Positions 14,251-41,132 of a DNA stretch of 45,588 nt are shown piece by piece. This DNA comes from Vectrevirus PDP21P3. Within the stretch, counting starts at the first letter, position 1; every line of letters begins with the position of its first letter. A model generated the notes under the pieces. The model searched no databases, was not told where the DNA came from, and saw only the letters and a program-made list of their open reading frames with translations. The stretch lies in the sequence record OZ035804.1. One strand, given 5' to 3'. Both the position numbers and the translations under genes were made by a program.

Positions 14251-14270
14251 AGTGTCTCACATGTGAGACT
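14251..14270 (+). repeat. conserved palindrome copy a (agtGTCTCACATGTGAGACtta)
   Basis: perfect palindrome between RNAP stop and next promoter. Confidence 0.8.
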
Positions 14271-14271
14271 T

Positions 14272-14294
14272 ATTTACCGGACACTATAGGATAG
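14272..14294 (+). promoter_or_regulatory. phage RNAP promoter
   Basis: ATTTACCGGACACTATAGGATAG; +1 G at 14289 followed by 5' hairpin CCGTCggaGACGG. Confidence 0.7.
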
Positions 14295-14435
14295 CCGTCG
14301 GAGACGGGAAAGAAAGGGAAGATAAAGGATATAAAAGGAAGTAATAGGTATTAAAGGTTATATAGGTTATCTAGGAATACCTATTACCTTCTTCCTTCCT
14401 CTTATTACTACTTAGAGGAAGGGCAGATCTAGGTT

Positions 14436-14451
14436 GTCTCACATGTGAGAC
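14436..14451 (+). repeat. conserved palindrome copy b
   Basis: GTCTCACATGTGAGAC. Confidence 0.8.
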
Positions 14452-14456
14452 TTCGT

Positions 14457-14479
14457 ATTTACCGGACAGTATAGATAAG
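14457..14479 (+). promoter_or_regulatory. phage RNAP promoter variant
   Basis: ATTTACCGGACAGTATAGATAAG (one mismatch in the core, C to G); upstream of gp1.1-like gene. Confidence 0.5.
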
Positions 14480-14504
14480 ACTAACTTACTTTGGAGATTT
14501 AACC

Positions 14505-14633
14505 ATGCGTAACTTTGAGAAGATGACCCGTAAAGCTAACCGTTTTGACATGGAAGAAGGGCAGACGAGAGGCAAGAAGCTGAATAAACCTGTCCGTGAC
14601 CGTGCATCTAAACGCGCTGCGTGGGAGTTCTAA
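14505..14633 (+). CDS. T7 gp1.1-like small basic protein
   Basis: MRNFEKMTRKANRFDMEEGQTRGKKLNKPVRDRASKRAAWEF resembles T7 gene 1.1 product (MRNFEKM… as remembered). Confidence 0.6.
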   Translation: MRNFEKMTRKANRFDMEEGQTRGKKLNKPVRDRASKRAAWEF

Positions 14634-14636
14634 GTT

Positions 14637-14855
14637 ATGGCTAAATATAGAATTAAGACGTGTTTAAATAGTCACGGACAAGAGCAATACATAGTACAAC
14701 GTAAAGTATTAGGTTTAATATGGGTCACGTGTATGGTGCCTATTGGTTATACTGATACAGAGGCTATATTCTGCACCGAAAGGGATGCAAAGAAGTTTAT
14801 CTCGAAGCGCAGAAAAGCTGACTCTTATCAACACAGAATTATTAAGGTGAATTAA
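14637..14855 (+). CDS. hypothetical protein
   Basis: 72 aa; stop overlaps primase/helicase ATG (TAATG). Confidence 0.45.
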   Translation: MAKYRIKTCLNSHGQEQYIVQRKVLGLIWVTCMVPIGYTDTEAIFCTERDAKKFISKRRKADSYQHRIIKVN

Positions 14856-16843
14856 TGGCGATAATCAATAACATCCAATGCCCCGCTTGCGCTAAGAACG
14901 GGCATGATAAGTCCTCTAATCATCTTATGATATTTGATGATGGTGCTGGCTACTGTAACCGTGGTCATTTCCATGATAACGGCAAACCTTACTACCATAA
15001 GCCGGAAGGTGGCATCGAGATAACCGAGTTGCCAATTACTGGCAATATCAAATATACACCTTCTCAATTCAAAGAAATGGAGAAGGAAGGGAAGTTAAGC
15101 GACCCTAAGCTACGCGCCATCGCACTTGGTGGTATGCGTATGAAAGACCGTTGGGAGGTCATGAATGAGCAAGAAAGGGCAGACCAAGAAGCAGAGTGGA
15201 AACTTGATGTTGAATGGTTCCTCACGCTTAAGCGTAAGAACCTTGTTTCCCGACACATTCGCGGCGACATTTGCGCATTGTATGATGTACGTGTCGGACA
15301 CGATGAAGAGGGTAGAGTCTCACGGCATTACTATCCACGCTTCGAAGGTGGAGAGTTAGTAGGTGCTAAGTGTCGTACCTTACCTAAAGATTTTAAGTTT
15401 GGTCACTTAGGTAAGCTCTTTGGTATCCAAGATCTTTTCGGTATGAATACTTTGTCTCACGTGTTAGACAAGGGAAGACGAAAGGATTGCTTACTTATTG
15501 TAGGCGGTGAACTTGATGCACTAGCAGCCCAGCAAATGCTCCTTGATTCTGCCAAAGGTACTAAGTGGGAGGGGCAACCTTATCATGTATGGTCTGTTAA
15601 CAAAGGTGAGTCTTGCCTTGAAGAGATAGTACAGAACCGAGAGCATATCGCCCAATTCAAGAAGATTATTTGGGGCTTTGATGGGGATGAGGTAGGACAG
15701 AAGCAGAACCAACAAGCGGCTCGCCTGTTTCCCGGCAAATCCTACATCCTTGAATACCCTTCTGGTTGCAAAGATGCCAACAAGGCATTGATGGCTGGTA
15801 AAGCCAAAGAATTTGTGGATGCTTGGTTTAATGCAAAGTCATCTGATGAAGTCTTTGGTAGCCAGATTAAATCTATCGCATCTCAAAGAGATAAGCTCAA
15901 GGCTGCACGTCCAGAACAAGGGCTGTCATGGCCTTGGCCTAAGCTAAACAAGGTAACGCTGGGTATCCGTAAGAATCAGCTTATCATTGTAGGTGCAGGC
16001 TCTGGTGTGGGTAAGACTGAGTTTCTCCGTGAAGTAGTTAAGCATCTCATTGAAGAACACGGTGAATCTGTAGGCATCATTTCTACAGAAGACCCGATGG
16101 TCAAAGTGTCCCGTGCTTTTATCGGCAAATGGATTGATAAGCGTATTGAGTTACCACCAACCAACGACCCGAAAGAAGATGGATACCGTGAGGTGTTCGA
16201 CTATACCGAGGAAGAAGCTAACGCCGCCATTGATTATGTAGCCGATACAGGGAAGCTGTTTGTAGCTGACCTAGAAGGTGACTACTCGATGGAGAAGGTA
16301 GAGCAGACCTGCCTTGAGTTTGAGGCTATGGGTATTTCCAATATCATCATTGATAACTTAACGGGGATTAAATTAGATGAGCGTGCTTTTGGTGGGAAGG
16401 TTGGTGCACTTGATGAATGCGTCAAGCGGATTGGTACTATCAAAGACCGACACCCAGTTACTATATTCCTTGTATCACACCTTACACGTCCTCCGGCAAA
16501 CCGTACCCAACACGAAGAAGGTGGCGAGGTTATCCTTTCTGACTTCCGAGGCTCAGGAGCTATCGGATTCTGGGCATCTTACGCCTTGGGGATTGAGCGT
16601 AACACAAGAGCTGAAACGCTTGATGAAAGAACTACCACGTACATTTCATGTGTCAAAGACCGCGACCAAGGAATATTTTCCGGTACTCGTATAATGCTTA
16701 AAGGCGATATTGCTACGGGTCGCTTACGTGAACCAGAGCAAAGATCTCGACCGTTTGATACTGGTGCTCCAAAAGAACAAACTGTACCAGAAGAAGTGGT
16801 TGATAAAGGAGGTTTTATTGCTGACGAAGTTGAAGAGTTTTGA
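14855..16843 (+). CDS. DNA primase/helicase (T7 gp4-like)
   Basis: N-terminal Cys4 zinc ribbon CPACAKNGH…YCNRGH; Walker A GAGSGVGKTEF; Walker B-like IIIDNL; acidic C-terminus ending EEF. Confidence 0.9.
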   Translation: MAIINNIQCPACAKNGHDKSSNHLMIFDDGAGYCNRGHFHDNGKPYYHKPEGGIEITELPITGNIKYTPSQFKEMEKEGKLSDPKLRAIALGGMRMKDRWEVMNEQERADQEAEWKLDVEWFLTLKRKNLVSRHIRGDICALYDVRVGHDEEGRVSRHYYPRFEGGELVGAKCRTLPKDFKFGHLGKLFGIQDLFGMNTLSHVLDKGRRKDCLLIVGGELDALAAQQMLLDSAKGTKWEGQPYHVWSVNKGESCLEEIVQNREHIAQFKKIIWGFDGDEVGQKQNQQAARLFPGKSYILEYPSGCKDANKALMAGKAKEFVDAWFNAKSSDEVFGSQIKSIASQRDKLKAARPEQGLSWPWPKLNKVTLGIRKNQLIIVGAGSGVGKTEFLREVVKHLIEEHGESVGIISTEDPMVKVSRAFIGKWIDKRIELPPTNDPKEDGYREVFDYTEEEANAAIDYVADTGKLFVADLEGDYSMEKVEQTCLEFEAMGISNIIIDNLTGIKLDERAFGGKVGALDECVKRIGTIKDRHPVTIFLVSHLTRPPANRTQHEEGGEVILSDFRGSGAIGFWASYALGIERNTRAETLDERTTTYISCVKDRDQGIFSGTRIMLKGDIATGRLREPEQRSRPFDTGAPKEQTVPEEVVDKGGFIADEVEEF

Positions 16844-17306
16844 GGCCGCAGGTTATACCATCAAGGAAGATGGTACTATCCTTAACCCTAAAGGTGTAAT
16901 ACGCAAGCCCACGTCTTTAGGAAAGAAAGTAAAGTATTTATATGTAACTTGGAAACATCAAGGTCGAACAGTAACAGAACTTGTACACCGACTGGTTGCT
17001 TGTAAGTACATACCCAACCCACATGGTTTACCAGAAGTTCATCATAAAGACTTTAATCCTCTTAATTGTCATAAAGATAATCTTGAATGGACAGATGGGA
17101 AAACCAATTGTGAGTACAGCTATTCACGAGTAGAGACTGCACTTGCACGAAAGGCTACTTTGCTGTCACCTGATGGAATTAAACATGATGTGTTTAATGT
17201 TCGTAAGTTCTGCCGTGAACATAGCCTCAATCCACCTAGCATATTTGAAGTGCTTAGTGGTAAGCGTAAATCACACAAAGGATGGACTATTTACCGGACA
17301 CTATAG
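16818..17306 (+). CDS. HNH homing endonuclease
   Basis: HRLVACKYIPNPHGLPEVHHKDFNPLNCHKDNLEW = HNH motif; probable TTG start 5 nt after AAGGAGG (track ORF 16710 extends upstream into helicase in another frame); stop lies inside the 17289 promoter. Confidence 0.65.
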   Translation: MLTKLKSFEAAGYTIKEDGTILNPKGVIRKPTSLGKKVKYLYVTWKHQGRTVTELVHRLVACKYIPNPHGLPEVHHKDFNPLNCHKDNLEWTDGKTNCEYSYSRVETALARKATLLSPDGIKHDVFNVRKFCREHSLNPPSIFEVLSGKRKSHKGWTIYRTL

Positions 17307-17311
17307 AAGAG
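17289..17311 (+). promoter_or_regulatory. phage RNAP promoter
   Basis: ATTTACCGGACACTATAGAAGAG; +1 G at 17306. Confidence 0.7.
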
Positions 17312-17340
17312 ACAACCTTTGACGATGAACAGGAGTTTTA

Positions 17341-17502
17341 ATGGAAATTATTAAACCAGTATTGAATATCGGTATTGAAATCCTATTCATGCTTGTGATC
17401 GCAGATTATGCTGCACGATATGGATTCAAGAAAGCTGTGAAACTTATCGTTGCATCTGGTTTTATGATGTCAATGTTCTTTATTGTAACACGCCTTATCT
17501 AG
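17341..17502 (+). CDS. hypothetical small membrane protein
   Basis: 53 aa, AGGAG 5 nt upstream; hydrophobic segments. Confidence 0.35.
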   Translation: MEIIKPVLNIGIEILFMLVIADYAARYGFKKAVKLIVASGFMMSMFFIVTRLI

Positions 17503-17515
17503 TGTATTTATCAGG

Positions 17516-17539
17516 GCTTGTCTCACATGTGAGACAGGC
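17516..17539 (+). repeat. conserved palindrome copy c (gcTTGTCTCACATGTGAGACAggc)
   Basis: 18-bp perfect core plus pairing flanks. Confidence 0.8.
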
Positions 17540-17574
17540 TCTTATTAAGTACATTAAATAACTGGAGATTGATT

Positions 17575-18297: not shown

Positions 18298-18307
18298 GGA
18301 GTTAATC

Positions 18308-18535: not shown

Positions 18536-18734
18536 ACATAGCCTTAAAATGTTCAATGGTCATGAAGACCTGCAAGCACAAATCACCAACCAAGCCTTCC
18601 TGTTTGCACAATTAACTATGGCTGAAGCAAAGAAGAATAGCCTGACGCGTGAACAGGTTATTAAGGAGGCAACTTGGGAGCCACACCAAGGTAAATACAT
18701 GGGCAATAAATTAACTGTAACACGCAGTCGATAA
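18525..18734 (+). CDS. hypothetical protein
   Basis: 69 aa ORF overlapping previous stop. Confidence 0.35.
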   Translation: MQNKHSLKMFNGHEDLQAQITNQAFLFAQLTMAEAKKNSLTREQVIKEATWEPHQGKYMGNKLTVTRSR

Positions 18735-18740
18735 GTCAAG

Positions 18741-18764
18741 GGTTGTCTCACGTGTGAGACAGCC
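18741..18764 (+). repeat. conserved palindrome copy d (ggTTGTCTCACGTGTGAGACAgcc)
   Basis: central CG instead of AT; otherwise identical. Confidence 0.8.
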
Positions 18765-18885
18765 TTTCATCATATTGATTGGAGGTGCATTATGCCACGT
18801 GATTATGATTCTGATTGGGACTACTTTGACTCAATGAATCCAAAACCCGAACGTTCAGATGATTACTACGAAACAGAGGCAATGT

Positions 18886-21396
18886 ATGAAAACTATTGAT
18901 TGGAAGAAGGAAGCAGAAGGGCGAATCCTAGTGATGGATGCGGAAGCTAAAGGTCTGCTTGATGCTATCCGCTATGGTCATCGTGAAGATGTACACATCA
19001 TTTGCTGCATGGATTTGCTTACTACAGAGGAGTTCTTATTCTTTGACCCATATGAGATGCGTGACCCTGAAGCAAGAGAACACCTGAAGGAATGGGAAGG
19101 ACATCAAGATGGAACCTTGGTTGACGGTGTTAACTTCCTGAAGCATTGTGAAGCTATTGTGTCACAGAACTTCCTAGGGTATGACGGCCTTCTCTTTGAG
19201 AAAGCATTCCCTGATATTTGGAAAGGCTTTAACTATACCGAGAAGCGCGGCAAGGGCAGACTCCGTGCTGACCTGTGTCCTATCCGTGTTGTCGACACAC
19301 TGGTAATGAGTCGCCTGTTAAACCCCGACAGACGTCTTCCTCCGCAAGCTTATGCCAAGGGCATGGGTAACGTTGCCCCTCATTCAATTGAGGCGCACGG
19401 CATCCGTATAGGCCGCTATAAGCCGGAGAATGAGGACTGGTCTAAGCTAACTGACCACATGGTTCATCGTGTACGTGAGGACGTGGCGATTGGTCGTGAC
19501 CTGTTCCTGTGGTTGTACAATGGGGAATGGATGGAGCACAAACGCCGTGGCGTGAACAAACGCACTGGCCTAGGTATTGAGACAGCCTTCCACATGGAAT
19601 CCATTGTGGCGCTGGAGATGAGCCGTCAGGCCGAACGCGGATTCCGTCTGGATATCGACAAGGCCTTAGCTCGATGCGAAGAACTGGACGCCAAGATTGA
19701 TGAGACAGTCGCAGCGTTCCGTCCGCATATGCCTATGCGTATCAAGTCTAAACCTTTTAAACCGGAAGAGAAGAATGAAACCTGCCAAAAAGCAAATGAG
19801 TATGGACGAAGCAACAACATCAACGTGGTTCTCGACCCCTCACACTTTCTACATGCAGAACGCCGTGGAGATAGGAAAACTGTTTGGGCTGTCACCACTA
19901 AGTCTGGTGACTGGAGTGCTTCTGTCAAGAAAGATTTCCCTCACCTTAGAGGAAACCGTAATGATACGCCAAGCATCAAGTGGATTGGCGCTTATAGTCC
20001 AGTCACGTTTGAAGAGATTCCCTTGGGAAACCGTGACACCGTTAAGCAAGTGCTCTACGACTATGGCTGGAAAGGTGTGGAGTTCAACGACACCGAGCAA
20101 GCCTATCTTGATGAAAATGGTGTCCTACCTAAGCCTTGGAGTGGTAAGATAAATGAAAAGTCCCTTACTTTATGGCAGGAAAGAGCCGCACGTGAAGGTA
20201 AAACAGTCCCTGATTGGTGCTTGGGTATCGCTGCATGGTACATACTCGTATCCCGTCGTGGTCAGATCCTCAACCGTGGTGACGTTGAAGCCTTCAACGA
20301 GAAAGGAACGTGGCCCTCGCAGGCTGGTGTACGAAAGTGTCGTGGCCTTGTACCTGTAGCCTTTAACAAGGAGCTAGGAATCAATGCGCAGCAATACTAC
20401 GAAAGGTATGGATGTTGGCCTACGTCTGACAAAGATGATGGAGAGTGGCGTGTGCCAGGCAATGCTGTTACTATTGGTACTAATACGTTTCGTATGCGTC
20501 ATCGTAACATTGTTAATATTCCTTCCCGTGGGTTGTATCCTCTACGTGATTTATTCATAGCTAGCAAAGGTAAAATGATACTCGGATGTGATGGCGCGGG
20601 TCTTGAGCTTCGCATCTTAGCCCATTTCATGGGTGATCCTGAGTATATTGATATTGTCTTGAATGGCGATATTCACTCACACAACCAAGCGAAGGCTGGA
20701 TTGCCCTTACGTGACACTGCGAAAACATTTATCTACGCTTTTCTCTACGGGTCTGGCATACCAAACCTTGCCGCTGTATGTGGCATGACTGAAGCACAGA
20801 TGAAAGAGTGTGTCGCTCGCTTTGAAGTAGAGCTACCTCACTTAGCTAAGCTTAAGGAGGGAGTGGAATCTGCTGCTTCACAATTTGGGTACATGCACGC
20901 TGTAGATGGGCGCTGGGGTCGTGTACGTGTTAGTAATGGTGAGATTAAGATTCACACCTGTCTTAATGTACTCCTCCAGATGACCGGTTCTCTCACTATG
21001 AAGTACTCAAAAGTGAAAGCACTAGCTACCATGCGTAAAGAGGGCGTGGCTCTTGATGCTAATGGTAATCCTGCTATGCTTGTCGACTATCACGATGAGT
21101 GGCAGATGGAGGTGCCTGAAGACGAAGTGTTAGAAATTCGCTACTCTATTCCTTCCTCTGAATGGAAAGAAGAAGAGAAAAGGCAGTATCGAGACTCAGA
21201 AGGACGTATGTGGTCTGCACCTAAGATTGTGGAAGGCAACCCTAAAGAGGATGAGGAGATCACTGTACGTCGTCGTTATCATCGTGCTGGTGAGATCCTA
21301 GCTGAATCTATTACATGGGCTGGAGAATATCTCAAGTTACGCATTCGAATGGATGGGGAATATATGCTTGGGTATTCATGGGCTGAAACACACTGA
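18886..21396 (+). CDS. DNA polymerase (family A, T7 gp5-like)
   Basis: ATG after GAGG (track start 18859 is upstream of first ATG); motifs DGAGLELR and RDTAKTFIYAFLYGSG match T7 DNAP motifs A/B as remembered. Confidence 0.9.
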   Translation: MKTIDWKKEAEGRILVMDAEAKGLLDAIRYGHREDVHIICCMDLLTTEEFLFFDPYEMRDPEAREHLKEWEGHQDGTLVDGVNFLKHCEAIVSQNFLGYDGLLFEKAFPDIWKGFNYTEKRGKGRLRADLCPIRVVDTLVMSRLLNPDRRLPPQAYAKGMGNVAPHSIEAHGIRIGRYKPENEDWSKLTDHMVHRVREDVAIGRDLFLWLYNGEWMEHKRRGVNKRTGLGIETAFHMESIVALEMSRQAERGFRLDIDKALARCEELDAKIDETVAAFRPHMPMRIKSKPFKPEEKNETCQKANEYGRSNNINVVLDPSHFLHAERRGDRKTVWAVTTKSGDWSASVKKDFPHLRGNRNDTPSIKWIGAYSPVTFEEIPLGNRDTVKQVLYDYGWKGVEFNDTEQAYLDENGVLPKPWSGKINEKSLTLWQERAAREGKTVPDWCLGIAAWYILVSRRGQILNRGDVEAFNEKGTWPSQAGVRKCRGLVPVAFNKELGINAQQYYERYGCWPTSDKDDGEWRVPGNAVTIGTNTFRMRHRNIVNIPSRGLYPLRDLFIASKGKMILGCDGAGLELRILAHFMGDPEYIDIVLNGDIHSHNQAKAGLPLRDTAKTFIYAFLYGSGIPNLAAVCGMTEAQMKECVARFEVELPHLAKLKEGVESAASQFGYMHAVDGRWGRVRVSNGEIKIHTCLNVLLQMTGSLTMKYSKVKALATMRKEGVALDANGNPAMLVDYHDEWQMEVPEDEVLEIRYSIPSSEWKEEEKRQYRDSEGRMWSAPKIVEGNPKEDEEITVRRRYHRAGEILAESITWAGEYLKLRIRMDGEYMLGYSWAETH

Positions 21397-21455
21397 GTTA
21401 TACTCAAGGTCACTTATGAGTGGCCTTTATGAATAACTTAACTGGAGGAAATATA

Positions 21456-22013
21456 ATGAATGAACTGAACACTAAGATGCTCAAGAAAGTTTATAATCTT
21501 GTATATAGTATCACGGGTCTACAATTCTACCCTGTAGGCGGTGCGGTTCGTGACACCCTGTACGGAGTAACACCTAAAGACTATGATATGGTGTTGCCTG
21601 TAGGGTCTATGGCAGATTTTCAGGCGCACGAAATCATGGAAAATATCTCTGAAGAGATGGCAATTATGGGATTTAGTACCAAACTCTACCAATCATACGG
21701 TATCAATTTAGGTTATGAAATCAACCCTACCTCTTTTCAGGCTATGTTCCTTAGCTGCATGAAAGTGCAGATGCGTAATTGCCAACTTGATTTGCTTCTT
21801 TCTAAGTCTGAAACCATCCAAGATCATGTACGTAAGCACGATTGCAATATGAATATGGTGTGGTTCGATGGTAAAGATATCAAGTGGGAGCACGGCGGTG
21901 TTACTCCTTTCGTTCCTGTGTTAGAGTTCAACCCTGACGTATGTGATCGTCGCATTGCTTACATGGACAAGAAGCGCCATGAACTTATCCGTCACAAATT
22001 AATGCATCTTTGA
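21456..22013 (+). CDS. minimal nucleotidyltransferase, CCA-adding enzyme/poly(A) polymerase head-domain-like
   Basis: FYPVGGAVRDTLYGVTPKDYDMV matches the GGxVRD…D-x-D signature of the tRNA nucleotidyltransferase/poly(A) polymerase family; only ~185 aa; ATG 7 nt after GGAGG. Confidence 0.6.
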   Translation: MNELNTKMLKKVYNLVYSITGLQFYPVGGAVRDTLYGVTPKDYDMVLPVGSMADFQAHEIMENISEEMAIMGFSTKLYQSYGINLGYEINPTSFQAMFLSCMKVQMRNCQLDLLLSKSETIQDHVRKHDCNMNMVWFDGKDIKWEHGGVTPFVPVLEFNPDVCDRRIAYMDKKRHELIRHKLMHL

Positions 22014-22035
22014 TTTACCGGACACTATAGAAGGA
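22013..22035 (+). promoter_or_regulatory. phage RNAP promoter
   Basis: ATTTACCGGACACTATAGAAGGA; +1 G at 22030. Confidence 0.7.
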
Positions 22036-22554: not shown

Positions 22555-23361
22555 ATGGCACGTGGTGATTTTGATTTTGGTGCTCAGGTTACTAAAGCTG
22601 AAGGTAAGGTTTTTAAGAACCCTGAAGTTGGTGATCATGAAGCAGTAATCTCTGGCATCATTCATGTGGGTTCCTTCCAAGATATCTTTAAGAAAGGTAA
22701 TACCACTGAAGTTAAGAAGCCAGCAAACTTTGTTCTTGTTAAGATTGTACTGATGGGTGACGATGACAAGAACGAAGATGATTCTCGCATGGAACAATGG
22801 ATGGCTGTGCCTCTGAAGTCTGGTGATAAGGCAACACTAACTAAGTTCCTGAATGCAGTTGACCCTAAAGAATTGCTGGGTGGCTTCGATGATTTTATCG
22901 GTGAATGTCTGACTGCAACTATGGTTGGCTCTGGCGACAAGAATGATGATGGTACTTTCAAGTATGTTAACTGGAAAGGCTTTGGTGGTATGCCGGATAA
23001 GCTGAAGAAACTTGTCATTGCTCAGGTTGAAGAAGAGGGTCTGTCTATGACAGGTCATATTACCTTCGACAAGCTGACCAAAGAAATCCTTGATGATATT
23101 CCTGCTAACTTGGTGCGTCAATACTTCCTGAACGAGACGCCTCGTGGCAAGAACCTGTCTGTTGCTGGCTCTCACGTAGAAGCAATCATCAAAGCTGCTC
23201 GTGAAGAAGACCCAGAGTGGAAGAAAGCTAAGAAGAAAGATGAAGAGGATGCCACTCCAGCTAATCGTAGATCTCTGGATACCGGCGAGTCTGTTCCACA
23301 GGAAGTACCTGAAGCGGAGGACAACCCTGCACCTGAAATGGATGAAGACGCGGAATACTAA
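22555..23361 (+). CDS. putative ssDNA-binding protein (gp2.5-like) with acidic C-terminal tail
   Basis: 268 aa; C-terminus …EAEDNPAPEMDEDAEY (acidic tail with terminal aromatic residue, as in T7 gp2.5); functional assignment is inference. Confidence 0.5.
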   Translation: MARGDFDFGAQVTKAEGKVFKNPEVGDHEAVISGIIHVGSFQDIFKKGNTTEVKKPANFVLVKIVLMGDDDKNEDDSRMEQWMAVPLKSGDKATLTKFLNAVDPKELLGGFDDFIGECLTATMVGSGDKNDDGTFKYVNWKGFGGMPDKLKKLVIAQVEEEGLSMTGHITFDKLTKEILDDIPANLVRQYFLNETPRGKNLSVAGSHVEAIIKAAREEDPEWKKAKKKDEEDATPANRRSLDTGESVPQEVPEAEDNPAPEMDEDAEY

Positions 23362-23590: not shown

Positions 23591-23606
23591 GTCTCACGTG
23601 TGAGAC
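23591..23606 (+). repeat. conserved palindrome copy e
   Basis: GTCTCACGTGTGAGAC. Confidence 0.8.
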
Positions 23607-23621
23607 AAATCGGTGTCCGGT

Positions 23622-23644
23622 ATTTACTGGACACTATAGAAGAG
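23622..23644 (+). promoter_or_regulatory. phage RNAP promoter (consensus copy)
   Basis: ATTTACTGGACACTATAGAAGAG; +1 G at 23639. Confidence 0.7.
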
Positions 23645-23694: not shown

Positions 23695-24066
23695 ATGTTC
23701 AAGATTGAAACTATCGTAAACCGTGTTGTTAAAGGTGCTGCTCTGGTATCCGTTGAGTCTTTCATTATCGTCGATGAAGCTGATCAACTGGTAGCTGGTA
23801 CTAAAGCTTACGATACCCGTGAAGAAGCTCAGGCTAAGATTGACAGCATGGGTAACTTCGCTGCTGGTCTGGAGTTCGCTCGTGCTTGCTTCCCTGAGCA
23901 GGCTGACAAAGCACAGATTGGTAAGGCTAATATCGTAGCTGAATATCTGGATTGGGTTGCTGCTGGTAAACCAGTGAAAGAAGTTAAGGCTGCTGAAGAA
24001 GCTGAAGCTCCAGCAGAAGAAGTAGCTGCACCGGAAACTCCGGTAAGCGAAGAGGAAGAATTTTGA
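23695..24066 (+). CDS. probably highly expressed small protein with acidic C-terminal tail ending in Phe
   Basis: 123 aa; strong RBS AAAAGGAGA; codon choice (GGT, CGT, GCT, CTG, AAA) resembles the capsid gene; own promoter upstream and Tphi-like terminator downstream; C-terminus …APETPVSEEEEF. Confidence 0.7.
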   Translation: MFKIETIVNRVVKGAALVSVESFIIVDEADQLVAGTKAYDTREEAQAKIDSMGNFAAGLEFARACFPEQADKAQIGKANIVAEYLDWVAAGKPVKEVKAAEEAEAPAEEVAAPETPVSEEEEF

Positions 24067-24183: not shown

Positions 24184-24471
24184 ATGCCGACTATTGAATC
24201 TCGTTTGTACTTGGAGACATTACACTATTATAGCCAGCTACACATGTCTGGTATAATGCGTGTTAAGGTTCTTCTAGATGGTGAAGTGTTTCACATAGAA
24301 GAAATCAATGTGGCGATGCAGCCTTACAGAAGACCTGTTGATGTACTCCTTGATATCCTGAAGGAGTGGACATGCAACTCGAAGAATACTTGCGAACAAC
24401 CCTTGCTGTTGACGAAGAAAGTCCTAGTGGCCTCGTGTGGAAAGTTAGGGCAGCGAGAAGAGTTCGTGTAG
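24184..24471 (+). CDS. hypothetical protein
   Basis: 95 aa ORF; its last ~100 nt overlap the HNH-AP2 gene in another frame. Confidence 0.35.
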   Translation: MPTIESRLYLETLHYYSQLHMSGIMRVKVLLDGEVFHIEEINVAMQPYRRPVDVLLDILKEWTCNSKNTCEQPLLLTKKVLVASCGKLGQREEFV

Positions 24472-24842
24472 GTCAGCCAGCACTTGCTTGCTTAAAACCA
24501 GATGGCTACTACCAAAGTACCGTCATGGGTAAGAAGCTGTACGCTCACCGCGTAGTGTTCTTCTTGACGCATGGGTACTGGCCTGTCAATGTGGATCACC
24601 TCGATGGTAATCGTCAGAACAACAAGCCGTATAACCTAGCAGATGTGGATGCAGCAGAGAATGCAGAGAATCGTATGCACTTCGGTTGCTATCTGACTAA
24701 GCAAGGTTGGCGTGTTCGTATCCAAGTTAAAGGTATTAGGAGAGATATTGGCACTTACCCTACCAAGGAAGAGGCCATATCTGCCTATACCAAGGCAAAG
24801 CTAGAACTTCACCACTCTCCACGTTATAAGGAGGTGGTATGA
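24372..24842 (+). CDS. HNH endonuclease with AP2-like DNA-binding domain
   Basis: HRVVFFLTHGYWPVNVDHLDGNRQNN (HNH motif) plus GWRVRIQVKGIRRDIGTYPTKEEAISAY (AP2-type); ATG 5 nt after AAGGAG. Confidence 0.7.
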   Translation: MQLEEYLRTTLAVDEESPSGLVWKVRAARRVRVGQPALACLKPDGYYQSTVMGKKLYAHRVVFFLTHGYWPVNVDHLDGNRQNNKPYNLADVDAAENAENRMHFGCYLTKQGWRVRIQVKGIRRDIGTYPTKEEAISAYTKAKLELHHSPRYKEVV

Positions 24843-25867
24843 GTAGGCCTTTATTTAACTTTGGTGCAGAAGTTTCTGAAGATAACAACCTGATAGTGTG
24901 GCCAACTGAAGGTAATAGAATCGCTTTAATAGATGCTGATATGCTACCTTATATTGTAGGGTACACAATCAGTGACATGACTTATGTACGAGCCACAACT
25001 CGTGTTAAGTCAGGACAAGTCCCATCAATCAAAGATACACCTGAGTGTAAGCAAGCATGTGACCGTGTGAACTCCTTGCTTAACTCTTGGGTGTATGCAG
25101 CAGAGTGCGATGCAGCTAAGTTATTCATGACGAAATCAGAAGCTAACTTCCGTGTTCGCCTAGCATTCACCAAGCCTTACAAAGGTCAACGTAAGACTGA
25201 GAAGCCTCCATTCTTCTATGAATTGCGAGAGCATCTCTTAGAGGTTCATGGTGCAATCTTGGCAGATGGAGAAGAAGCGGATGACCTCATGAGCATCACA
25301 CAATGGGATAGCCACCGCCGCTTCCAGCAAGATACAGGTAACGAGTTCCCTATCGGTAGTCCAGAGCATAAAGCATTCTCTGACACTTGCATCGTTTCCT
25401 TGGATAAGGATTTGATGATTGTTCCCGGTTGGCATCTACAGCCGGGAGGTGAGAAGAAATGGGTAGAGCCTATGGGTTGGCTTGAGCTACGCCGCAAGGC
25501 TAATGGTCAAGTGAAAGACCTTAAAGGTGCTGGCCTCATGTTCCATTATGCACAGATGATTATCGGTGATGATATTGATAATTACGCTGGCATACCCGGA
25601 CGTGGTGCTAAATACGCCTATGATCTTCTCAAAGATTGTAAGACAGAGAAAGAGTTGTACATGGCAGTGCTTGGTGCATATAAGGCTAAGTTCGGACATG
25701 GACAAGTTAAGATTAAGAATTACCGAGGTGGTTATCGTATCGGCAAGGCTTTTGACCTGATGCTTGAATGTGGTCGCCTAGCACACATGGCAAGATTCAA
25801 GGGTGATATATGGCGAGCCGATAAGAACCCAATCTTGTGGGGAGATGACGATGGATGGATGCATTGA
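24839..25867 (+). CDS. 5'-3' exonuclease (T7 gp6-like)
   Basis: EEADDLMSITQW, VSLDKDLMIVPG and IGDDIDNYAGIPGRG correspond to T7 gp6 motifs as remembered. Confidence 0.85.
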   Translation: MSRPLFNFGAEVSEDNNLIVWPTEGNRIALIDADMLPYIVGYTISDMTYVRATTRVKSGQVPSIKDTPECKQACDRVNSLLNSWVYAAECDAAKLFMTKSEANFRVRLAFTKPYKGQRKTEKPPFFYELREHLLEVHGAILADGEEADDLMSITQWDSHRRFQQDTGNEFPIGSPEHKAFSDTCIVSLDKDLMIVPGWHLQPGGEKKWVEPMGWLELRRKANGQVKDLKGAGLMFHYAQMIIGDDIDNYAGIPGRGAKYAYDLLKDCKTEKELYMAVLGAYKAKFGHGQVKIKNYRGGYRIGKAFDLMLECGRLAHMARFKGDIWRADKNPILWGDDDGWMH

Positions 25868-26288
25868 CCATGGGTGTAAGGGTTATGGTATAGGTTATGC
25901 TACTTCCTATTATAAAGGCCGTGACGGTAAGAAGAAGTTTACCACTAAACACAGAGTAGTATACTGTAAACACCATAACATTCACCCTGAAGATTTGCCT
26001 AAAGATATTGTTATTAGGCACAAATGTGATAATGCACGTTGTATTAATCCTTTACACTTAGAGTCTGGTACACATCGAGATAACATGAAAGATATGGCTG
26101 TCCGTGGTAGAGCCTACAAAGGTGGAATGCCGGGAGAAAAGAATGGCAGATGTGTGCTTTCTGATTTACAAGTAGCAGAGTTACGAGCCTTACGTGCTAA
26201 AGGGTTTACTTGTAAAGCTCTAGCTGAACGGTATGGCATAGGTATTACTCAAGTATCTAGACTAGCAAGAGGAGAGCAACGTGCGTAA
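25851..26288 (+). CDS. HNH endonuclease with C-terminal HTH
   Basis: HRVVYCKHH…RHKCDNARCINPLHLESGTHRDN (HNH) and C-terminal helix-turn-helix-like ALAERYGIGITQVSRLARG; start overlaps exonuclease 3' end. Confidence 0.7.
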   Translation: MDGCIDHGCKGYGIGYATSYYKGRDGKKKFTTKHRVVYCKHHNIHPEDLPKDIVIRHKCDNARCINPLHLESGTHRDNMKDMAVRGRAYKGGMPGEKNGRCVLSDLQVAELRALRAKGFTCKALAERYGIGITQVSRLARGEQRA

Positions 26289-27691: not shown

Positions 27692-27708
27692 TTGACACTA
27701 TAGAACAA
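27686..27708 (+). promoter_or_regulatory. phage RNAP promoter (SP6-like variant)
   Basis: ATTTAGTTGACACTATAGAACAA, one mismatch from canonical SP6 promoter core as remembered; followed by hairpin and TGATTGTGTAGTG motif. Confidence 0.55.
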
Positions 27709-27759
27709 AGGGCAGGTACTAGCTTGCCCTTGATTGTGTAGTGAATGGAGGAATTAATT

Positions 27760-34228: not shown

Positions 34229-34234
34229 TACCTA

Positions 34235-34269
34235 TGCCCTATCTACCCTGCGTAGGTAGGGTTCTTTTT
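34235..34269 (+). terminator. phage Tphi-like terminator after capsid gene
   Basis: GC-rich hairpin (CTACC…GGTAG) followed by TTCTTTTTG. Confidence 0.55.
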
Positions 34270-34282
34270 GTTAGGAGGGTTC

Positions 34283-37425: not shown

Positions 37426-38147
37426 TGGCTATAGGTTCTGCCGTTATGGCTGGTATGTCTTCTATTGGTAGTATGTTTGCAGGCAGCGGTGCAGCAGCCG
37501 CTGCTGGAGGTGCTGCCGCAGGTGGCGGAGGCTTGCTAGGTTCTCTAGGTGGCTTCCTAGGCGGCTCTACTGCTGGCTTCTCTAATGCTGGGCTTCTTGG
37601 TGCTGGCCTTCAAGGTTTAGGCTTGATTGGTGATCTCTTTGGTGGAAGTGATGAAGCCAAGGCAATGAAGAAAGCACAAGAAGAACAGTGGCGGCAGCAA
37701 CTTATTGCTACACAAGAAGCATACAAAACAGTAGCAGATGCAGAGCGTTCTGCTGCTAAACAATATCATGCAGATGCAATAAGCAATCAGGCTTCACTAC
37801 TACAGCAGCGAGCACAGGTTGCATTACTAGCAGGTGCTACTGGTACTGGTGGTAACTCTGTATCTTCTATGCTGAATGACTTAGCAGCAGAGGGCGGGAG
37901 GAACCAGAGTACAATTATTGATAACTATGAGAATCAGAAGATTAACTTCACCAATCAGCTTAAGTCTATCCAGCGAGGTGGACAGATGCAGATGCGTGAG
38001 TTTAAGAAGCCTTCTGCCGTAAGTACCTTGGTGCAAGGTATTCCAAGTCTGGCTTCTGCTTATGTAACTGGTAGCAAGTCGGGCATGGCTTTAGGTAAAG
38101 CTCTAACGGATTCTCGTACATATTCATCTGGAACAAGAGGTATTTAA
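37425..38147 (+). CDS. internal virion protein A
   Basis: ATG after AAGGAGGG; Gly/Ala-rich N-terminal half; first of three genes after the tail tube genes. Confidence 0.6.
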   Translation: MAIGSAVMAGMSSIGSMFAGSGAAAAAGGAAAGGGGLLGSLGGFLGGSTAGFSNAGLLGAGLQGLGLIGDLFGGSDEAKAMKKAQEEQWRQQLIATQEAYKTVADAERSAAKQYHADAISNQASLLQQRAQVALLAGATGTGGNSVSSMLNDLAAEGGRNQSTIIDNYENQKINFTNQLKSIQRGGQMQMREFKKPSAVSTLVQGIPSLASAYVTGSKSGMALGKALTDSRTYSSGTRGI

Positions 38148-41095
38148 TGGCAATTGAGCGACAAGCAGTACAAGGCCTGCCACAAGTGCAGGCCACTTCT
38201 CCTAATGTCATGACCTTTGCACCTCAGCAAGTTGGAGGTGTGGAGGCTGGCGTAGCTTCTACCTCCGGTAGTCGATTTATCGAAGACCTTATTCGAGCAG
38301 CCAGTAGTGTAGCTGATGTTACCACGGGTATCCTTAATCAGAAGATTGAGGAGGATAAGGTTGTTCAAATGGAACGGGCATATAATGGATTAATGCCTTC
38401 TGAGGATGCAACTCGTGGTGGCGCTCGTGCTAACATGCTTGTCAAAGCTCAACTGCTAGCTAATGATGAAGCAGCACGAATGAAAGACATGGCTACTCGT
38501 TTCCAAGGAACAGATGACGAGTGGACACAACTCATGGTTGACTCTCGTAATGAGATGCAGAATAAACTGTTCCAGCAATACCCTGAGTTGCAAGGTGACA
38601 AAGATACTATGCGTATGGTCACTAATGTCTTCCAAGAACAGCAGCCTCAGATTTGGGCTACACGAACCCAGCATAAACTTGACCGCGAACAAGCAGACCG
38701 TGAGGATACCTTTGACGGGCGAGTGGCTTCTACTTGGGATTCTAGTATTGACCCCGAAGCTTCTGGTTATGCCCTACAGGAGCGAATCCGCGAGGGATTT
38801 ACTCAAGGACTATTACCTGAGCAGATGCATAAGAAGCTGGTAGAGCGAGCTATTTCACTTGCTCAGGGTGGTGATATTAGCATGGCTGAAGCCTTGAAGT
38901 ACGTGAAGGACGATAAGGGTGTTTCTGTCTATGCTAAGAATCCGCAGCTTATCACAGCTATCACTAATGGTAATGCAGTTTGGGCTAGGAATAATGTTGC
39001 TGATGTGACTCGCATGTCTTTTGAAGTCAAAGAGTCCTATCTTGCAGGTGACTTGACGGATGAAGAATTACTGGAGCGAGCACAGCACATTAATAGCCTG
39101 ACAGGAAACTCTGTCTTCTCTAATCCAGAACTAGAAGCACTGATGCGCCAACGAGCTAAGCAGAATGCAGAGCTAGGTGCAATGCAGGATATGCGACGTG
39201 AACTTTACTCTGATCGCATGACTGGCTTCCAAGGTAAGACAGATAAAGAGAAGAAAGCCTACATTGATGTTATCAAACAGGATAGCCAACTATATGCAGA
39301 CCAGCAAATCAAACAACGTGGCTTGGACCCTTACAGTCAAGAGGCTGAAGCTATTCGTGGTGCAGTGGAAGTGCAGCGCCTGCAATTCATGAACTCCAAA
39401 GGCTTAGTGGATGACACCTTTGAGTCTCGTATCAAAGCCATGGAGTCTATGCTATCACCTGAGCACTTCGCTAAAGGAGAACCACAGGAGTTAATGACTA
39501 TTCGTCAGTTGTGGGAACAGTTACCAGAAGAAAGCCGAGGTGTCTTTGGTGATACGGTGAATGGCTATATGGATAACTACAACACTGCATTACAAATGGG
39601 AGAGACGCCCTTGCAGGCTGCAAGGTTTGCCCGTGAAGCACAGCAGAAATTCTCTCGTACTGAGAAGGAAACCAAGAAGTTCAACTCAGCTATTGGAGAT
39701 GCACTGGATGAGGTATCGGGTGCTGGCTGGTTTGATGGTAAAACCGAAGTGTCTGACTTAGGTAAAGCTATTGCAGAAGAAGAGTTACGAGCTAAGGCCA
39801 ATATGCTGTGGTCTAGCGGTATGCGTAACATGGATTCCATCAAGAAGGCTTTAATTACTTGGGGCAATAAACGCTACACTCAGTCAGAGGATGCAAAGAC
39901 TTCCGGTGGTTATTTCATTAAAGGTGATTACACTTCTGCATCTGACATGCTTATGTCTGTTGGGAAAGGTGTAAACCCTACCGATGTACCTCTGGCGCTT
40001 GGTAGGTATGTAGAAACACAAATGCCAGAATTGAAGAAGGAACTTCAAGAGTGGGAAACTAAGGATGATGTATACATTGATTACAATGAACAGAAAGGTA
40101 CTTTCGTGATTCGTGCTGGTGCAGCAGGTCGCCCTCTTTCTGGAGTAATCCCTGTCACTTCTTTAGATACCACTTCACTGCTAGACTCTGCCTATCAGAA
40201 GAAAGTAGAAGAACGAGATAAAGGTGAATATGTTCACCCATATCGTACAGATATCGGTGCACAAGAACCCATGCCAGCTAAGCCAACTGCCAAGGATATT
40301 GGTAAATTTGGACTAGCTAATTTCCTCATGTCTTCTGCCTTTGCTTCTGGTGAGAATCTACCTTCTAACTTCGAGATTAACTATAGAGGCAATATGCAAC
40401 AATTCTATGACAAGCTAGCTATGGATGAGAATGGCGATAAGCTGGGCTTCAACAAAGCCACAGGAACCTTCACACCGTACAAAGATGCACATGGCGAGTC
40501 GGTAGGCTACGGTCACTTCCTTACGGAAGAAGAAAAGAGAAATGGGTACATTAAGATTGGCGACGAACTGGTTCCGTATCGCGGCTCTATGTCTCAGCTC
40601 ACTGAGAGTAAGGCCCGTGCTCTTATGGAACAAGATGCCAAGAAGCATGTACCTCCAACTCGTGATTGGAAAATCCCATTCGACCAGATGCATCCGGCAC
40701 AGCAGCGCGGTTTAATGGATTTAACCTATAACTTAGGTAAAGGTGGAATCCAGAATGCACCGCGTGCTCTTGCTGCATTCAAGGCAGGTAAGCTTACAGA
40801 AGGCTTTATCGAAATGCTGGGTACTGCATCCAGTGAAGGTAAGCGTATTCCTGGTTTACTGAAGCGACGCGCTGAGGCTTACAATATGGCATCTGCCGGT
40901 GGTGTACCTAAGATTACCGAAGTAGAGACTCGTGAAGATGGGTCTATGTGGGTTAAGTTCGGCGGACCTATGCCAGCAGGTTCTGTATCTGCATGGACTC
41001 ATAAACGTATTGGCGCTGATGGCTGGTATCAGGTTTATGAGGCTGCACCTACCAAGTTAGCTAAAGGCTCTAAGGTAGGTAAAGTTAAGTTGTAG
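38147..41095 (+). CDS. internal virion protein B with C-terminal lysozyme-like domain
   Basis: 982 aa; C-terminal region contains GYGHFLTEEE…MDLTYNLG reminiscent of T4/lambda-type lysozyme core. Confidence 0.75.
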   Translation: MAIERQAVQGLPQVQATSPNVMTFAPQQVGGVEAGVASTSGSRFIEDLIRAASSVADVTTGILNQKIEEDKVVQMERAYNGLMPSEDATRGGARANMLVKAQLLANDEAARMKDMATRFQGTDDEWTQLMVDSRNEMQNKLFQQYPELQGDKDTMRMVTNVFQEQQPQIWATRTQHKLDREQADREDTFDGRVASTWDSSIDPEASGYALQERIREGFTQGLLPEQMHKKLVERAISLAQGGDISMAEALKYVKDDKGVSVYAKNPQLITAITNGNAVWARNNVADVTRMSFEVKESYLAGDLTDEELLERAQHINSLTGNSVFSNPELEALMRQRAKQNAELGAMQDMRRELYSDRMTGFQGKTDKEKKAYIDVIKQDSQLYADQQIKQRGLDPYSQEAEAIRGAVEVQRLQFMNSKGLVDDTFESRIKAMESMLSPEHFAKGEPQELMTIRQLWEQLPEESRGVFGDTVNGYMDNYNTALQMGETPLQAARFAREAQQKFSRTEKETKKFNSAIGDALDEVSGAGWFDGKTEVSDLGKAIAEEELRAKANMLWSSGMRNMDSIKKALITWGNKRYTQSEDAKTSGGYFIKGDYTSASDMLMSVGKGVNPTDVPLALGRYVETQMPELKKELQEWETKDDVYIDYNEQKGTFVIRAGAAGRPLSGVIPVTSLDTTSLLDSAYQKKVEERDKGEYVHPYRTDIGAQEPMPAKPTAKDIGKFGLANFLMSSAFASGENLPSNFEINYRGNMQQFYDKLAMDENGDKLGFNKATGTFTPYKDAHGESVGYGHFLTEEEKRNGYIKIGDELVPYRGSMSQLTESKARALMEQDAKKHVPPTRDWKIPFDQMHPAQQRGLMDLTYNLGKGGIQNAPRALAAFKAGKLTEGFIEMLGTASSEGKRIPGLLKRRAEAYNMASAGGVPKITEVETREDGSMWVKFGGPMPAGSVSAWTHKRIGADGWYQVYEAAPTKLAKGSKVGKVKL

Positions 41096-41108
41096 TACCT
41101 AACTCAAG

Positions 41109-41132
41109 GCTTGTCTCACATGTGAGACAGGT
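41109..41132 (+). repeat. conserved palindrome copy f (gcTTGTCTCACATGTGAGACAggt)
   Basis: between internal virion protein genes B and C. Confidence 0.8.

Follow-up and report, generated by a model that had tools for sequence, protein, structure and literature searches.

A dispersed palindromic module with lineage-specific arms in Vectrevirus PDP21P3 and related SP6/K1E-like phages

Introduction

Among the closest described counterparts of the repeated palindrome analysed here are the RNase III processing sites of phage T7, R0.3 to R18.5, reportedly catalogued by Dunn and Studier in 1983. The boxB hairpins of lambdoid nut sites, which are recognised by N proteins, are small RNA hairpins whose sequence differs between phages in step with the reader. 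In the operators of phages 434 and P22, which are repeated dyads, the outer bases are invariant, the centre is looser and the half-sites vary independently. REP/BIME elements with RAYT transposases and T4-type PeSL cassettes are short, dispersed, lineage-specific palindromes that affect mRNA ends. More recently, dispersed palindromes that resemble one another, a part of them also resembling RNase III sites, were identified in an Autographiviridae genome as the trigger of the Lamassu DdmABC system (PMC11707656).

Vectrevirus PDP21P3 is a K1E/SP6-like podophage, and the window analysed here is its whole genome (OZ035804.1; 45,588 nucleotides). Its palindromic module, present in at least eight copies as against two for boxB, resembles each of these systems in part. 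Like T7 RNase III sites, the copies nested in larger hairpins are intercistronic, specific to the plus strand and two-tiered with an internal loop, and they share the flank consensus ACUCAAGG...CCUUUAUGA; number and distribution are also similar, often near phage promoters. Unlike those sites, the tip is a near-invariant, genome-wide dyad where T7 has a stem that covaries freely, an RNase III-type lower structure is missing from five of the eight copies and one copy lies in a gene. As with boxB, the sequence shifts between related phages, as it would with a phage-encoded reader; however, it is the loop that is read in boxB, whereas in this module the constraint falls on the arms and leaves the centre loose, no reader has been recognised and the polymerase is single-subunit. 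The module has the fixed outer bases, the less constrained centre and the independently varying half-sites of the 434 and P22 operators, but it is spread over about 32 kb rather than one control region, its spacing to promoters varies, some copies lie within RNA processing hairpins and no repressor-like gene was found. Similar to REP/BIME and PeSL elements, it is intergenic, dispersed, lineage-specific and at times paired with promoters, yet it has no cognate transposase and its positions are orthologous and stable rather than mobile. The Lamassu study deals with how the host senses hairpin DNA of a T7/T3-like vibriophage rather than with any use of the palindromes by the phage itself, and the present dyad was not described in it (PMC11707656).

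Copy number and core sequence

An earlier note on this DNA had listed six copies of an invariant 18-bp palindrome. The exact 18-mer TGTCTCACRTGTGAGACA occurs at three sites only (17519, 18744 and 41112; 0 expected, 100 shuffles), and as the copy at 18744 has the non-palindromic centre GT, only two copies are perfect. With up to three mismatches, eight sites are obtained (8806, 14253, 14435, 15453, 17519, 18744, 23590 and 41112), corresponding to 16 strand-matches against 0.06 expected. The constant unit is a 16-bp core, GTCTCAC-RY-GTGAGAC, which is exact at 14254, 14436, 17520, 18745, 23591 and 41113 and carries one mismatch at 8807 and 15454, with none expected by chance. The repeated palindrome is genuine and non-random. 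The earlier observation is partly confirmed, the positions first given lying 0-3 nt from the recomputed ones. The view that only the central base varies was nearly right, although both central bases (R, then Y) vary among relatives. The copies had also been called intergenic, which is true of the seven then listed but not of an eighth, missed copy at 15454.

All copies are transcribed, and a small hairpin forms in plus-strand RNA. Three copies (17520, 18745 and 41113) are nested in two-tier hairpins; the other five are bare hairpins of 6-7 bp, three of them before phage promoters, one upstream of early promoters and one within coding sequence.

Copies nested in RNase III-like hairpins

The first nested copy (core 17520-17535) is the tip of a plus-strand hairpin at 17500-17556 whose two stems have 13 bp above and 11 bp below an internal loop; this hairpin folds at -28.6 kcal/mol (z -7.7), compared with -14.9 on the minus strand. 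The second (core 18745-18760; plus strand, 18725-18781) likewise tips a two-tier hairpin, which precedes the DNA polymerase gene block, and folds at -25.4 (z -5.5; minus strand -14.2). The third (core 41113-41128; plus strand, 41093-41149) is located between two large internal virion protein genes and folds at -24.1 (z -4.4); its flanks, ACUCAAGG...CUUUAUGAU, agree with the T7 RNase III site consensus. All three are far stabler than shuffles, the plus strand being much the stabler in two of the three, and in all of them an asymmetric internal loop separates the lower stem from an upper one of about 10-13 bp. This two-tier structure is absent at 8807, 14254, 14436 and 23591 (6-7 bp each), and the copy at 15454 is intermediate.

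A covariance model (R1) built from seven T7 RNase III sites matched only the plus strand at 41087-41163, with 29.6 bits (E 1e-3 to 1e-2), and the orthologs in SP6, BigMira, PP1 and phD2B scored 31-43 bits. Weak plus-strand matches were obtained at 18719 (18.5 bits) and 17494 (17.3 bits; E 0.2-0.4), and none at the bare copies of the window. Since three copies cap T7-type hairpins, a point that escaped the earlier note when it weighed RNase III as an alternative, the model match makes RNase III a putative participant at these sites rather than an excluded one.

These matches bring in the explanation that the copies are purely structural, host-read signals, such as RNase III sites, terminators or 3'-end stabiliser hairpins, alike through descent or duplication; the upper stems of T7's own sites are also mutually similar. 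This is improbable. RNase III-like hairpins with quite different tips occur in the window at 21387, 10001, 27690 and 11478, the first being part of a T7-type site without the module (21387-21454). The Ea100 ortholog of the 41113 hairpin is missing the module, which is thus not required for RNase III-type sites, and in AS51 an RNase III-like hairpin is followed on its 3' side by the module. Module and RNase III-type hairpins are separable. Among 22 nested copies from nine genomes, the flanking stem covaries freely and the junction, U-A plus U.G, is conserved, while the module appears in two or three alleles only.

Bare copies and phage promoters

The left-end copy (8807-8822, plus strand) is a degenerate module, GTCTCAC-AT-GTTAGAC, with a C.U mismatch. 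It precedes the first sigma70-like early promoters by 40-80 nt, a position that counts against reading as RNA, and it has orthologs in K1E, SP6, BigMira, phD2B, PP1, Ea100, uligo and VEN. The copy at 14254-14269 (plus strand) follows the early terminator (14188-14211) by 43 nt, and the +1 of the promoter at 14273-14291 is 20 nt further on. The next copy (14436-14451, plus strand) sits between two promoters after the RNA polymerase gene and ends 23 nt short of the +1 of the second (14458-14476); T7 R1.1 occupies the same position, itself between phi1.1A and phi1.1B. The copy at 23591-23606 (plus strand) begins 2 nt past the gene 17 stop codon, ends 33 nt short of the +1 of the gene 18 promoter (23623-23641) and has orthologs in all genera examined. 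It abuts a second, plus-strand hairpin in which an upstream segment pairs with the promoter core and which covaries with promoter specificity.

The earlier note had correctly placed three copies just upstream of phage promoters. Modules are found at only three of the 13 promoters of the window, with distances to +1 (20, 23 and 33 nt) that reveal no fixed spacing, and the other five copies have none of the 13 within 200 nt. Over nine genomes, 22 modules stop 16-36 nt short of a promoter +1, and none lies 48 nt or less downstream of one. In relatives, the RNA polymerase gene is often trailed by two or three copies.

Hairpins of 6-7 bp are too short for cleavage under the substrate rules of RNase III, which again speaks against purely structural signals. 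The local folds of the bare copies are no better than shuffles (z near 0 at 8807, 14254, 14436 and 23591); this and their length of only 6-7 bp count against reading as RNA. As terminators, only 14254 and 14436 passed a loose scan, with six pairs and the T-rich promoter edge as tail, and one copy in phage R4596 is annotated as an ARNOLD terminator; both points favour structural signals. Nevertheless, none of the window copies shows the G+C-rich hairpin with a direct U run of a class I terminator, those outside these two having no U run. The module also bears no constant relation to RNA ends, being nested, 5' of a promoter or, in AS51, 3' of a hairpin, which is a further observation counting against reading as RNA.

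Another conceivable role is that of a single-stranded DNA hairpin acting on either strand in replication or maturation, for example in priming, helicase loading or at origins. Palindromes fold alike on both strands, copies occur at positional analogues of the T7 origin-associated promoters phiOL and phi1.1A/B, inversions of the centre indicate hairpin-mediated events at the DNA level, and the adjacent gene 18 product ends, as do T7 gp2.5 and gp4, in an acidic tail (...SEEEEF). Lamassu DdmABC, moreover, senses T7-like phage palindromes as single-stranded DNA hairpins (PMC11707656). Mismatched halves, however, weaken DNA and RNA hairpins equally, and neither the nested nor the in-gene copies have a link to an origin, so that only a slim chance is given to this role.

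The in-gene copy

The copy at 15454-15469 (plus strand; GTCTCAC-GT-GTTAGAC) lies within the primase/helicase ORF (14855-16843), where it encodes L-S-H-V-L-D. Its sole deviation, G to T, sidesteps an in-frame TGA. In relatives, this copy tracks the genome's allele: SP6 and PP1 read M-S-N-V-L-D, and the shift thus includes a nonsynonymous His/Asn replacement, which a purely structural signal leaves unaccounted for. In K1E-like genomes, four additional flanking pairs are present, and the consensus left half is kept without pairing being restored, the latter counting against reading as RNA.

Lineage-specific alleles

Both Molineuxvirinae and Colwellvirinae carry the 7+7 dyad throughout, at orthologous positions, and each lineage has its own version of it. 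The allele GTCTCAC is found in K1E, Ea100, AS51, VEN and uligo, and GTCCAAC in BigMira, phD2B and PP1; SP6 carries GTCTAAC/GTTGGAC, with a U.G pair, and mixes GTCTAAC and GTCCAAC arms; L158 has GTCTACA and RCIP0053 has GTCTAG. Nearly all copies in one genome share the lineage version, the few exceptions being neighbouring half-site variants, and between genera the arms switch in step across a genome's copies. Orthologous copies switch allele together while the sequences directly outside the 16 nt are unrelated, which rules out simple descent or gene-conversion tracts and stands against purely structural signals. The diversity of K1E-like genomes is too low to measure selection on core versus flank, and a scan of IMG/VR for the core returned mostly single chance matches, with a few usable K1E- and uligo-like contigs.

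Recombination linkers or selfish repeats, i.e., sequences at gene-block borders serving modular exchange, as T4-type promoter-stem-loop (PeSL) cassettes do, or their own spread, would fit the conserved islands around 17520 and 18745, which are flanked by highly variable genes, and the single foreign-allele copies that L133 and L139 carry alongside mosaic neighbouring genes. Positions that are orthologous and stable over two subfamilies, the lack of a transposase-like partner, the shortness of 16 nt for homologous exchange and the allele-tracking in-gene copies make this highly improbable.

The interpretation in the earlier note is partly supported. Its core, a constraint on the arm sequence besides structure, holds: arms are near-uniform in each genome and switch in step, and the flanks of nested copies covary while the module does not. 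The same note had held that structurally equivalent hairpins of divergent sequence in relatives would argue for a purely structural role. The outcome is mixed, with divergence between genomes and uniformity within each, and this uniformity supports recognition over a purely structural role. Sequence-specific recognition is thus the best inference; both options named at the outset, a dimeric DNA binder and a sequence-specific RNA signal, are compatible with the data.

Half-sites and pairing

A survey of 235 copies at 37 loci gave the half-site pattern GTC-Y-M-AC, with the outer GTC/GAC constant in all alleles. As in operator-type dyads, half-sites are shared and most copies of a genome have the same centre length, exceptions being rare; 16- and 17-bp versions stand side by side in BigMira, L158 and RCIP0053. 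The nested copies comprise 47 perfect ones, five with a G.U pair functional on the plus strand and a lone A.C case at the loop-closing pair. Imperfect bare copies, by comparison, include 17 with plus-strand G.U, 17 with A.C (minus-strand G.U) and 25 with other mismatches. This lack of strand bias, which counts against reading as RNA, indicates that the half-sites vary independently of pairing. C7 and G10 are invariant despite being unpaired in the hairpin, and the centre flips between GT and AC in close relatives, the element inverting freely; these features likewise count against reading as RNA.

Because the bare copies follow the logic of half-sites rather than pairing, the main rival to an RNA signal is an operator-like site in duplex DNA for a phage-encoded symmetric (dimeric) protein or nuclease. 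A protein bound there would act at the genome end, around the origin and at some of the promoters, whether as a regulator, as an insulator or roadblock, or to mark an origin, and hairpin tips would host copies only because a palindromic insert is all that they tolerate. Besides the half-site statistics, constant outer bases and free inversion, this is favoured by the 22 modules that directly precede particular promoters (those first in line after the RNA polymerase gene, that of gene 18 and one at the left end), by the two or three copies often found past the RNA polymerase gene, by the left-end position and by the consensus half-site retained in in-gene copies. It is nonetheless somewhat less likely than an RNA signal. 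No DNA-binding protein was recognised by Pfam or PDB among the conserved unknown proteins, few window promoters carry a module and then at variable spacing, two dyad lengths coexist, and the additional flank pairing of the in-gene copy is left unexplained. It is also unlikely that tolerance alone would place copies exactly at the centre of three RNase III-type hairpins and keep a U.G junction over two subfamilies.

Search for a reader and for earlier descriptions

Ten conserved unknown proteins had no match in Pfam, PHROGs or PDB, and no DNA-binding reader was recognised among them. The predicted structure of gp18 was uninformative (pLDDT 53), and homolog searches with gp6 returned near-identical sequences only. 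A scan of 20 core families for residues tracking the allele yielded a few scattered positions and singled out no reader. These results, together with the foreign-allele copy tolerated in the K1E-like phage L133, count against reading as RNA. Endonuclease VII, considered because K1E is an outlier, was rejected as the reader: it does not track the allele, it is normal in CB5A, whose palindrome differs, and it is truncated in Ea100. Sites for the host factors CRP, LexA, IHF and Fis and lac-type sites were dismissed as mismatched in half-site arrangement or consensus, and T7 primase GTC sites were rejected for inconsistent flanks.

No Rfam family matched anywhere in the window at gathering score. 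Exact-sequence and keyword searches of the searchable literature found no description of the dyad, which the 2004 SP6 and SP6/K1-5 genome papers may mention, and the GenBank records of SP6 (AY370673) and K1E carry no regulatory annotation at module sites.

Proposed role

Based on the observed anatomy, conservation, concerted alleles and RNase III-like context of three copies, the module is tentatively explained, at somewhat below even chances, as an RNA hairpin signal at processing sites and unit borders that is read sequence-specifically by a putative co-evolving phage factor. The dyad, GTC-NNNN/NNNN-GAC with a 2-3-nt centre, would act mainly as RNA, lending sequence specificity to the signals for processing between units and for 3'/5' ends. 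At nested copies, cleavage in the internal loop by RNase III would leave the module as the terminal hairpin of the upstream message; bare copies may close a transcription unit just ahead of the next phage promoter. Uniform arms and in-step lineage switches, even in a coding region, point to a phage-encoded reader that co-evolves with the arms, host RNase III alone probably being insufficient.

The broader claim, that 7+7 dyads throughout the genome form a code for a putative phage-encoded reader, whether this recognises them in duplex DNA or as RNA hairpins, falls just short of an even chance. Such a code would constitute an unrecognised regulatory layer in SP6/K1E-like phages, its specificity having switched several times together with all sites. 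The places so marked would be the gene 18 promoter, the left end and the origin-like pair of promoters that follows the RNA polymerase gene, along with several hairpins for RNase III processing and positions within early genes.

Significance

Laboratory work relies heavily on the polymerases and promoters of SP6 and K1E, and phages specific for K1 are therapeutic candidates. Gene-expression control in SP6/K1E-like phages has been almost wholly inferred from T7. A sequence-specific signal present over two subfamilies, with lineage-wide switches of specificity, suggests a trans-acting reader that T7 does not have, which may be an RNA-processing or stability factor, a DNA-binding regulator or an origin protein. 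Once identified, the reader and its hairpin could provide an orthogonal hairpin/protein pair for synthetic biology, and the reader would bear on how palindromes are retained despite Lamassu-type sensing of hairpin-forming phage DNA. Its identification would show how SP6/K1E-like phages delimit their transcription units.

Copies of the palindrome

The genome, whose genes are all plus-strand, belongs to a K1E/K1-5/SP6-like podophage of the Molineuxvirinae; the record is a circular permutation, with K1E position 1 falling at about window 8175. A second record of Vectrevirus PDP21P3 (OZ035769.1, 45,588 bp) has the same length as the window and is identical to it across the 5 kb tested. The dispersed palindrome is real and more widespread than it first seemed. 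An earlier note described six copies of an 18-bp sequence; six exact copies do exist (14254, 14436, 17520, 18745, 23591, and 41113), but of a 16-bp core, GTCTCAC-RY-GTGAGAC, which is the true unit, and the exact 18-mer is present at only three sites (eight at up to three mismatches, with ~0 expected by chance). Its seven listed sites stand, with coordinates 0–3 nt off, whereas a further copy at 15454 was missed. Both 8807 and 15454 are one-mismatch cores. The latter lies inside the primase/helicase gene, where its single deviation, TGA to TTA, avoids the in-frame TGA that the consensus would create.

Distribution and lineage-specific versions

Across the Molineuxvirinae and Colwellvirinae, the module is present at orthologous positions, in lineage-specific versions that have the outer GTC/GAC in common wherever they are of the GTC type. 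GTCTCAC-RY-GTGAGAC is found in K1E-like phages and Erwinia phage phiEa100, and the same arms enclose a 3-nt centre in Vibrio phages AS51 and VEN and Pseudomonas phage uligo (RNA polymerase only ~42% identical to that of the window). SP6-like phages mix GTCTAAC/GTTGGAC with GTCCAAC/GTTGGAC, the latter being the version of Proteus, Lelliottia, and Pectobacterium phages. A metagenomic relative (L158) holds 12 copies of GTCTACA/TGTAGAC in 22 kb, and Klebsiella phage RCIP0053 a GTCTAG-type version. In Marinomonas phage CB5A, analogous positions hold another palindrome, GGTTCGAGATCTCGAAC(C/T), and in this comparison of versions the module was absent from T7. A related RNA polymerase is encoded by 214 genomes, and the GTCTACA, GTCTAG, and CB5A-type versions represent independent switches.

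Two K1E-like contigs (L133 at 3222 and L139 at 17412) each contain one foreign GTCCAAC copy among GTCTCAC copies, beside mosaic genes, an arrangement suggestive of exchange with phages of the SP6 or PP1 type, at or close to regions that bear modules. Other repeats were also encountered, namely a tandem array of GCTATAGTAA, ~18 copies long, that follows the RNA polymerase gene in RCIP0053 (15193–15370), tandem 27-bp repeats in phiEa100 (40706–40830), and TGTTATGTTATAACA, repeated near the genome ends of CB5A (234–390) and AS51 (41665–41715).

Nested copies and RNase III-type hairpins

The copies at 17520, 18745, and 41113 form the tips of two-tier plus-strand RNA hairpins, in each of which an internal loop separates a 13-bp upper stem from a lower stem of 9–11 bp. 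Their plus-strand folds reach −28.6 kcal/mol (z −7.7), −25.4 kcal/mol (z −5.5), and −24.1 kcal/mol (z −4.4), respectively; the minus-strand folds of 17520 and 18745 are much worse because the flanks use G.U pairs. The same architecture appears when T7 is folded at its RNase III sites (Dunn and Studier 1983), where cleavage falls within the internal loop, on its 3′ side. The T7 sites and 41113 (ACUCAAGGCUU-module-AGGUCUUUAUGAU) have ACUCAAGG...CCUUUAUGAU in common. Searching with a covariance model derived from seven T7 sites gave matches, each on the plus strand, at window positions 41087–41163 (29.6 bits), at the SP6, BigMira, PP1, and phD2B orthologs of that site (43, 42, 35, and 31 bits), and at window positions 18719 and 17494 (18.5 and 17.3 bits). 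Three window copies probably belong to RNase III-type processing hairpins, and that part of the finding is ordinary.

The top match in the window, 21387–21454 (+) at 49 bits, lacks the palindrome. Located directly after the DNA polymerase gene, it has a sequence, GAGUUAUACUCAAGGUCACUUAUGAGUGGCCUUUAUGAAUAACUU, close to that of a canonical T7-type RNase III site, and SP6 12219–12283 is the same site; this type of site is strikingly kept in sequence though the RNA polymerases of the phages are ~32% identical. Four more two-tier hairpins (10001–10067, 11478–11548, 27690–27757, and 5940–6006, all plus strand) are RNase III-like but have tips of unrelated sequence; they sit ahead of gene blocks, including the ocr-like and RNA polymerase genes, and the one at 27690 overlaps a promoter at 27687. 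At the phiEa100 counterpart of 41113, an RNase III-like hairpin is present but the module is not, and in AS51 a bare module follows such a hairpin by 9 nt, adjoining a ribosome-binding site. Since either element occurs without the other, the palindrome is a separable module.

Several extra ORFs (16710–17306, 21420–22013, 24366–24842, and 25803–26288) are absent from several relatives, and annotations in close ones call them HNH homing endonucleases; one immediately precedes the 17520 region and another immediately follows the RNase III-like site at 21387.

Bare copies and promoters

Bare copies in the window form hairpins of 6–7 bp, with local folds no better than those of shuffled sequences. 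As the earlier note had observed, three lie next upstream of phage promoters: 14254, after the strong early terminator at 14188–14211, ends 20 nt before the +1 of the promoter at 14273, 14436 ends 23 nt before that at 14458, and 23591 ends 33 nt before that at 23623. The first sigma70-like promoters lie 40–80 nt downstream of the copy at 8807. Across nine genomes, 22 modules end 16–36 nt before a promoter +1, with no module in the 48 nt that follow one, a placement that would suit an element closing the upstream transcription unit. The position of 14436, between two promoters following the polymerase gene, is exactly that of T7 R1.1.

A second hairpin (23607–23641) adjoins 23591, in which an upstream segment pairs with the core of the gene 18 promoter, being complementary to its specificity region (GGTGTCCGG / CTGGACAC). 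Comparison of its orthologs in relatives of other genera (L003, L004, L128, and L130) revealed that, in SP6, BigMira, PP1, and AS51, the segment changes in step with promoter specificity via plus-strand G.U pairs. This promoter-containing hairpin resembles T7 R3.8, R6.5, and R13.

The palindromes at 14254 and 14436 are identical and can pair mutually in read-through RNA; in the minimum-energy fold of 14181–14500, their duplex of ~22 bp closes a loop of ~150 nt (z −5.1). The intervening sequence is purine- and AT-rich with an inverted repeat of its own, and the region is possibly an analogue of the T7 primary origin.

Possible recognition as RNA or duplex DNA

Pairing was surveyed in 235 copies from 37 loci. 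Among nested copies, 47 pair perfectly, five have a plus-strand G.U, one has an A.C at the loop-closing pair, and none has another mismatch; the corresponding counts for bare copies are 123, 17, 17 (A.C, equivalent to G.U on the minus strand), and 25. Plus-strand RNA pairing is obeyed by nested copies, and bare copies lack strand bias. A symmetric half-site reader, such as a dimer bound to duplex DNA in operator-like fashion, is in our estimation somewhat less likely than an RNA reading, although it is favored by K1E-like in-gene copies, which keep the consensus left half where the right half is forced to differ, by left-end copies of close relatives, which display every combination of half-site variants, and by centres that switch between GT and AC, reverse complements of each other, among close relatives with no intermediates. 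At window 18752–18753, compared with K1E (10757) and the K1E-like genomes L133–L141, the centre is GT in some genomes and AC in others, and this module appears to have been flipped whole; reverse complementarity also relates the U.G and C.A states seen in other copies.

Conversely, several features favor an RNA form. Three copies and their other-genus orthologs, in which a wobble junction is conserved, are centred exactly on the tips of plus-strand hairpins of the processing type. The in-gene copy of K1E gains four extra flanking pairs, and some genomes hold 16- and 17-nt versions together. The hairpin adjoining 23591, with its plus-strand covariation, the R1.1 position of 14436, and the placement of modules before but not after +1 point the same way. 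We lean, with somewhat less than even confidence, toward the module being read as RNA.

Whichever the form, gene conversion was ruled out as the cause of the uniform copies because the flanks just outside the 16–17 nt are unrelated between bare copies. The in-gene primase copy matches its genome's allele by way of one His/Asn replacement and two synonymous substitutions (L-S-H-V-L-D in K1E-like phages versus M-S-N-V-L-D in SP6 and PP1); in-gene copies also occur in RNA polymerase genes. Among 22 nested copies, drawn from nine genomes, the module-flanking stem undergoes free compensatory change (AU/UA/GC; GC/CG/UG/UA), and module pairs are invariant or restricted to alleles, with the U-A plus U.G junction kept. 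The comparison of relatives for presence and covariation that had been proposed thus found modules at orthologous places, with flanks that covary and modules limited to alleles. Judged from sequence, this combination argues for sequence-specific recognition, as had been suggested, by a factor that differs between lineages and that may read the module as RNA or as DNA. Alleles differ between E. coli and Salmonella phages, and one is common to E. coli, Erwinia, Vibrio, and Pseudomonas phages; the recognizing factor would therefore differ by phage lineage, not by host.

Candidate readers and biological context

No reader protein was found among the conserved unknown proteins (no Pfam, PHROG-function, or PDB match), residue scans for one gave nothing convincing, and endonuclease VII was examined and rejected. 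Gp18 (123 aa, 23695–24066) shares 92% identity between SP6 and K1E-like phages, and a module plus promoter precede it in every case; its predicted structure was of too poor quality for use. Its acidic C-terminus ending in an aromatic residue (...SEEEEF), like those of gp16 (22555–23361, ...DEDAEY), probably the SSB, and primase/helicase (14855–16843, ...DEVEEF), resembles the polymerase-binding tails of T7 gp2.5 and gp4.

Searches by exact sequence and keywords found no description of the module in the searchable literature, although the 2004 SP6 and SP6/K1-5 genome papers may mention the repeat. Lamassu DdmABC defence is set off by RNase III-site palindromes and by similar dispersed ones in T7-like phages (PMC11707656), which represents a cost of such palindromes and not their function. 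An invariant, concertedly evolving module with bare and in-gene copies goes beyond known T7 biology.
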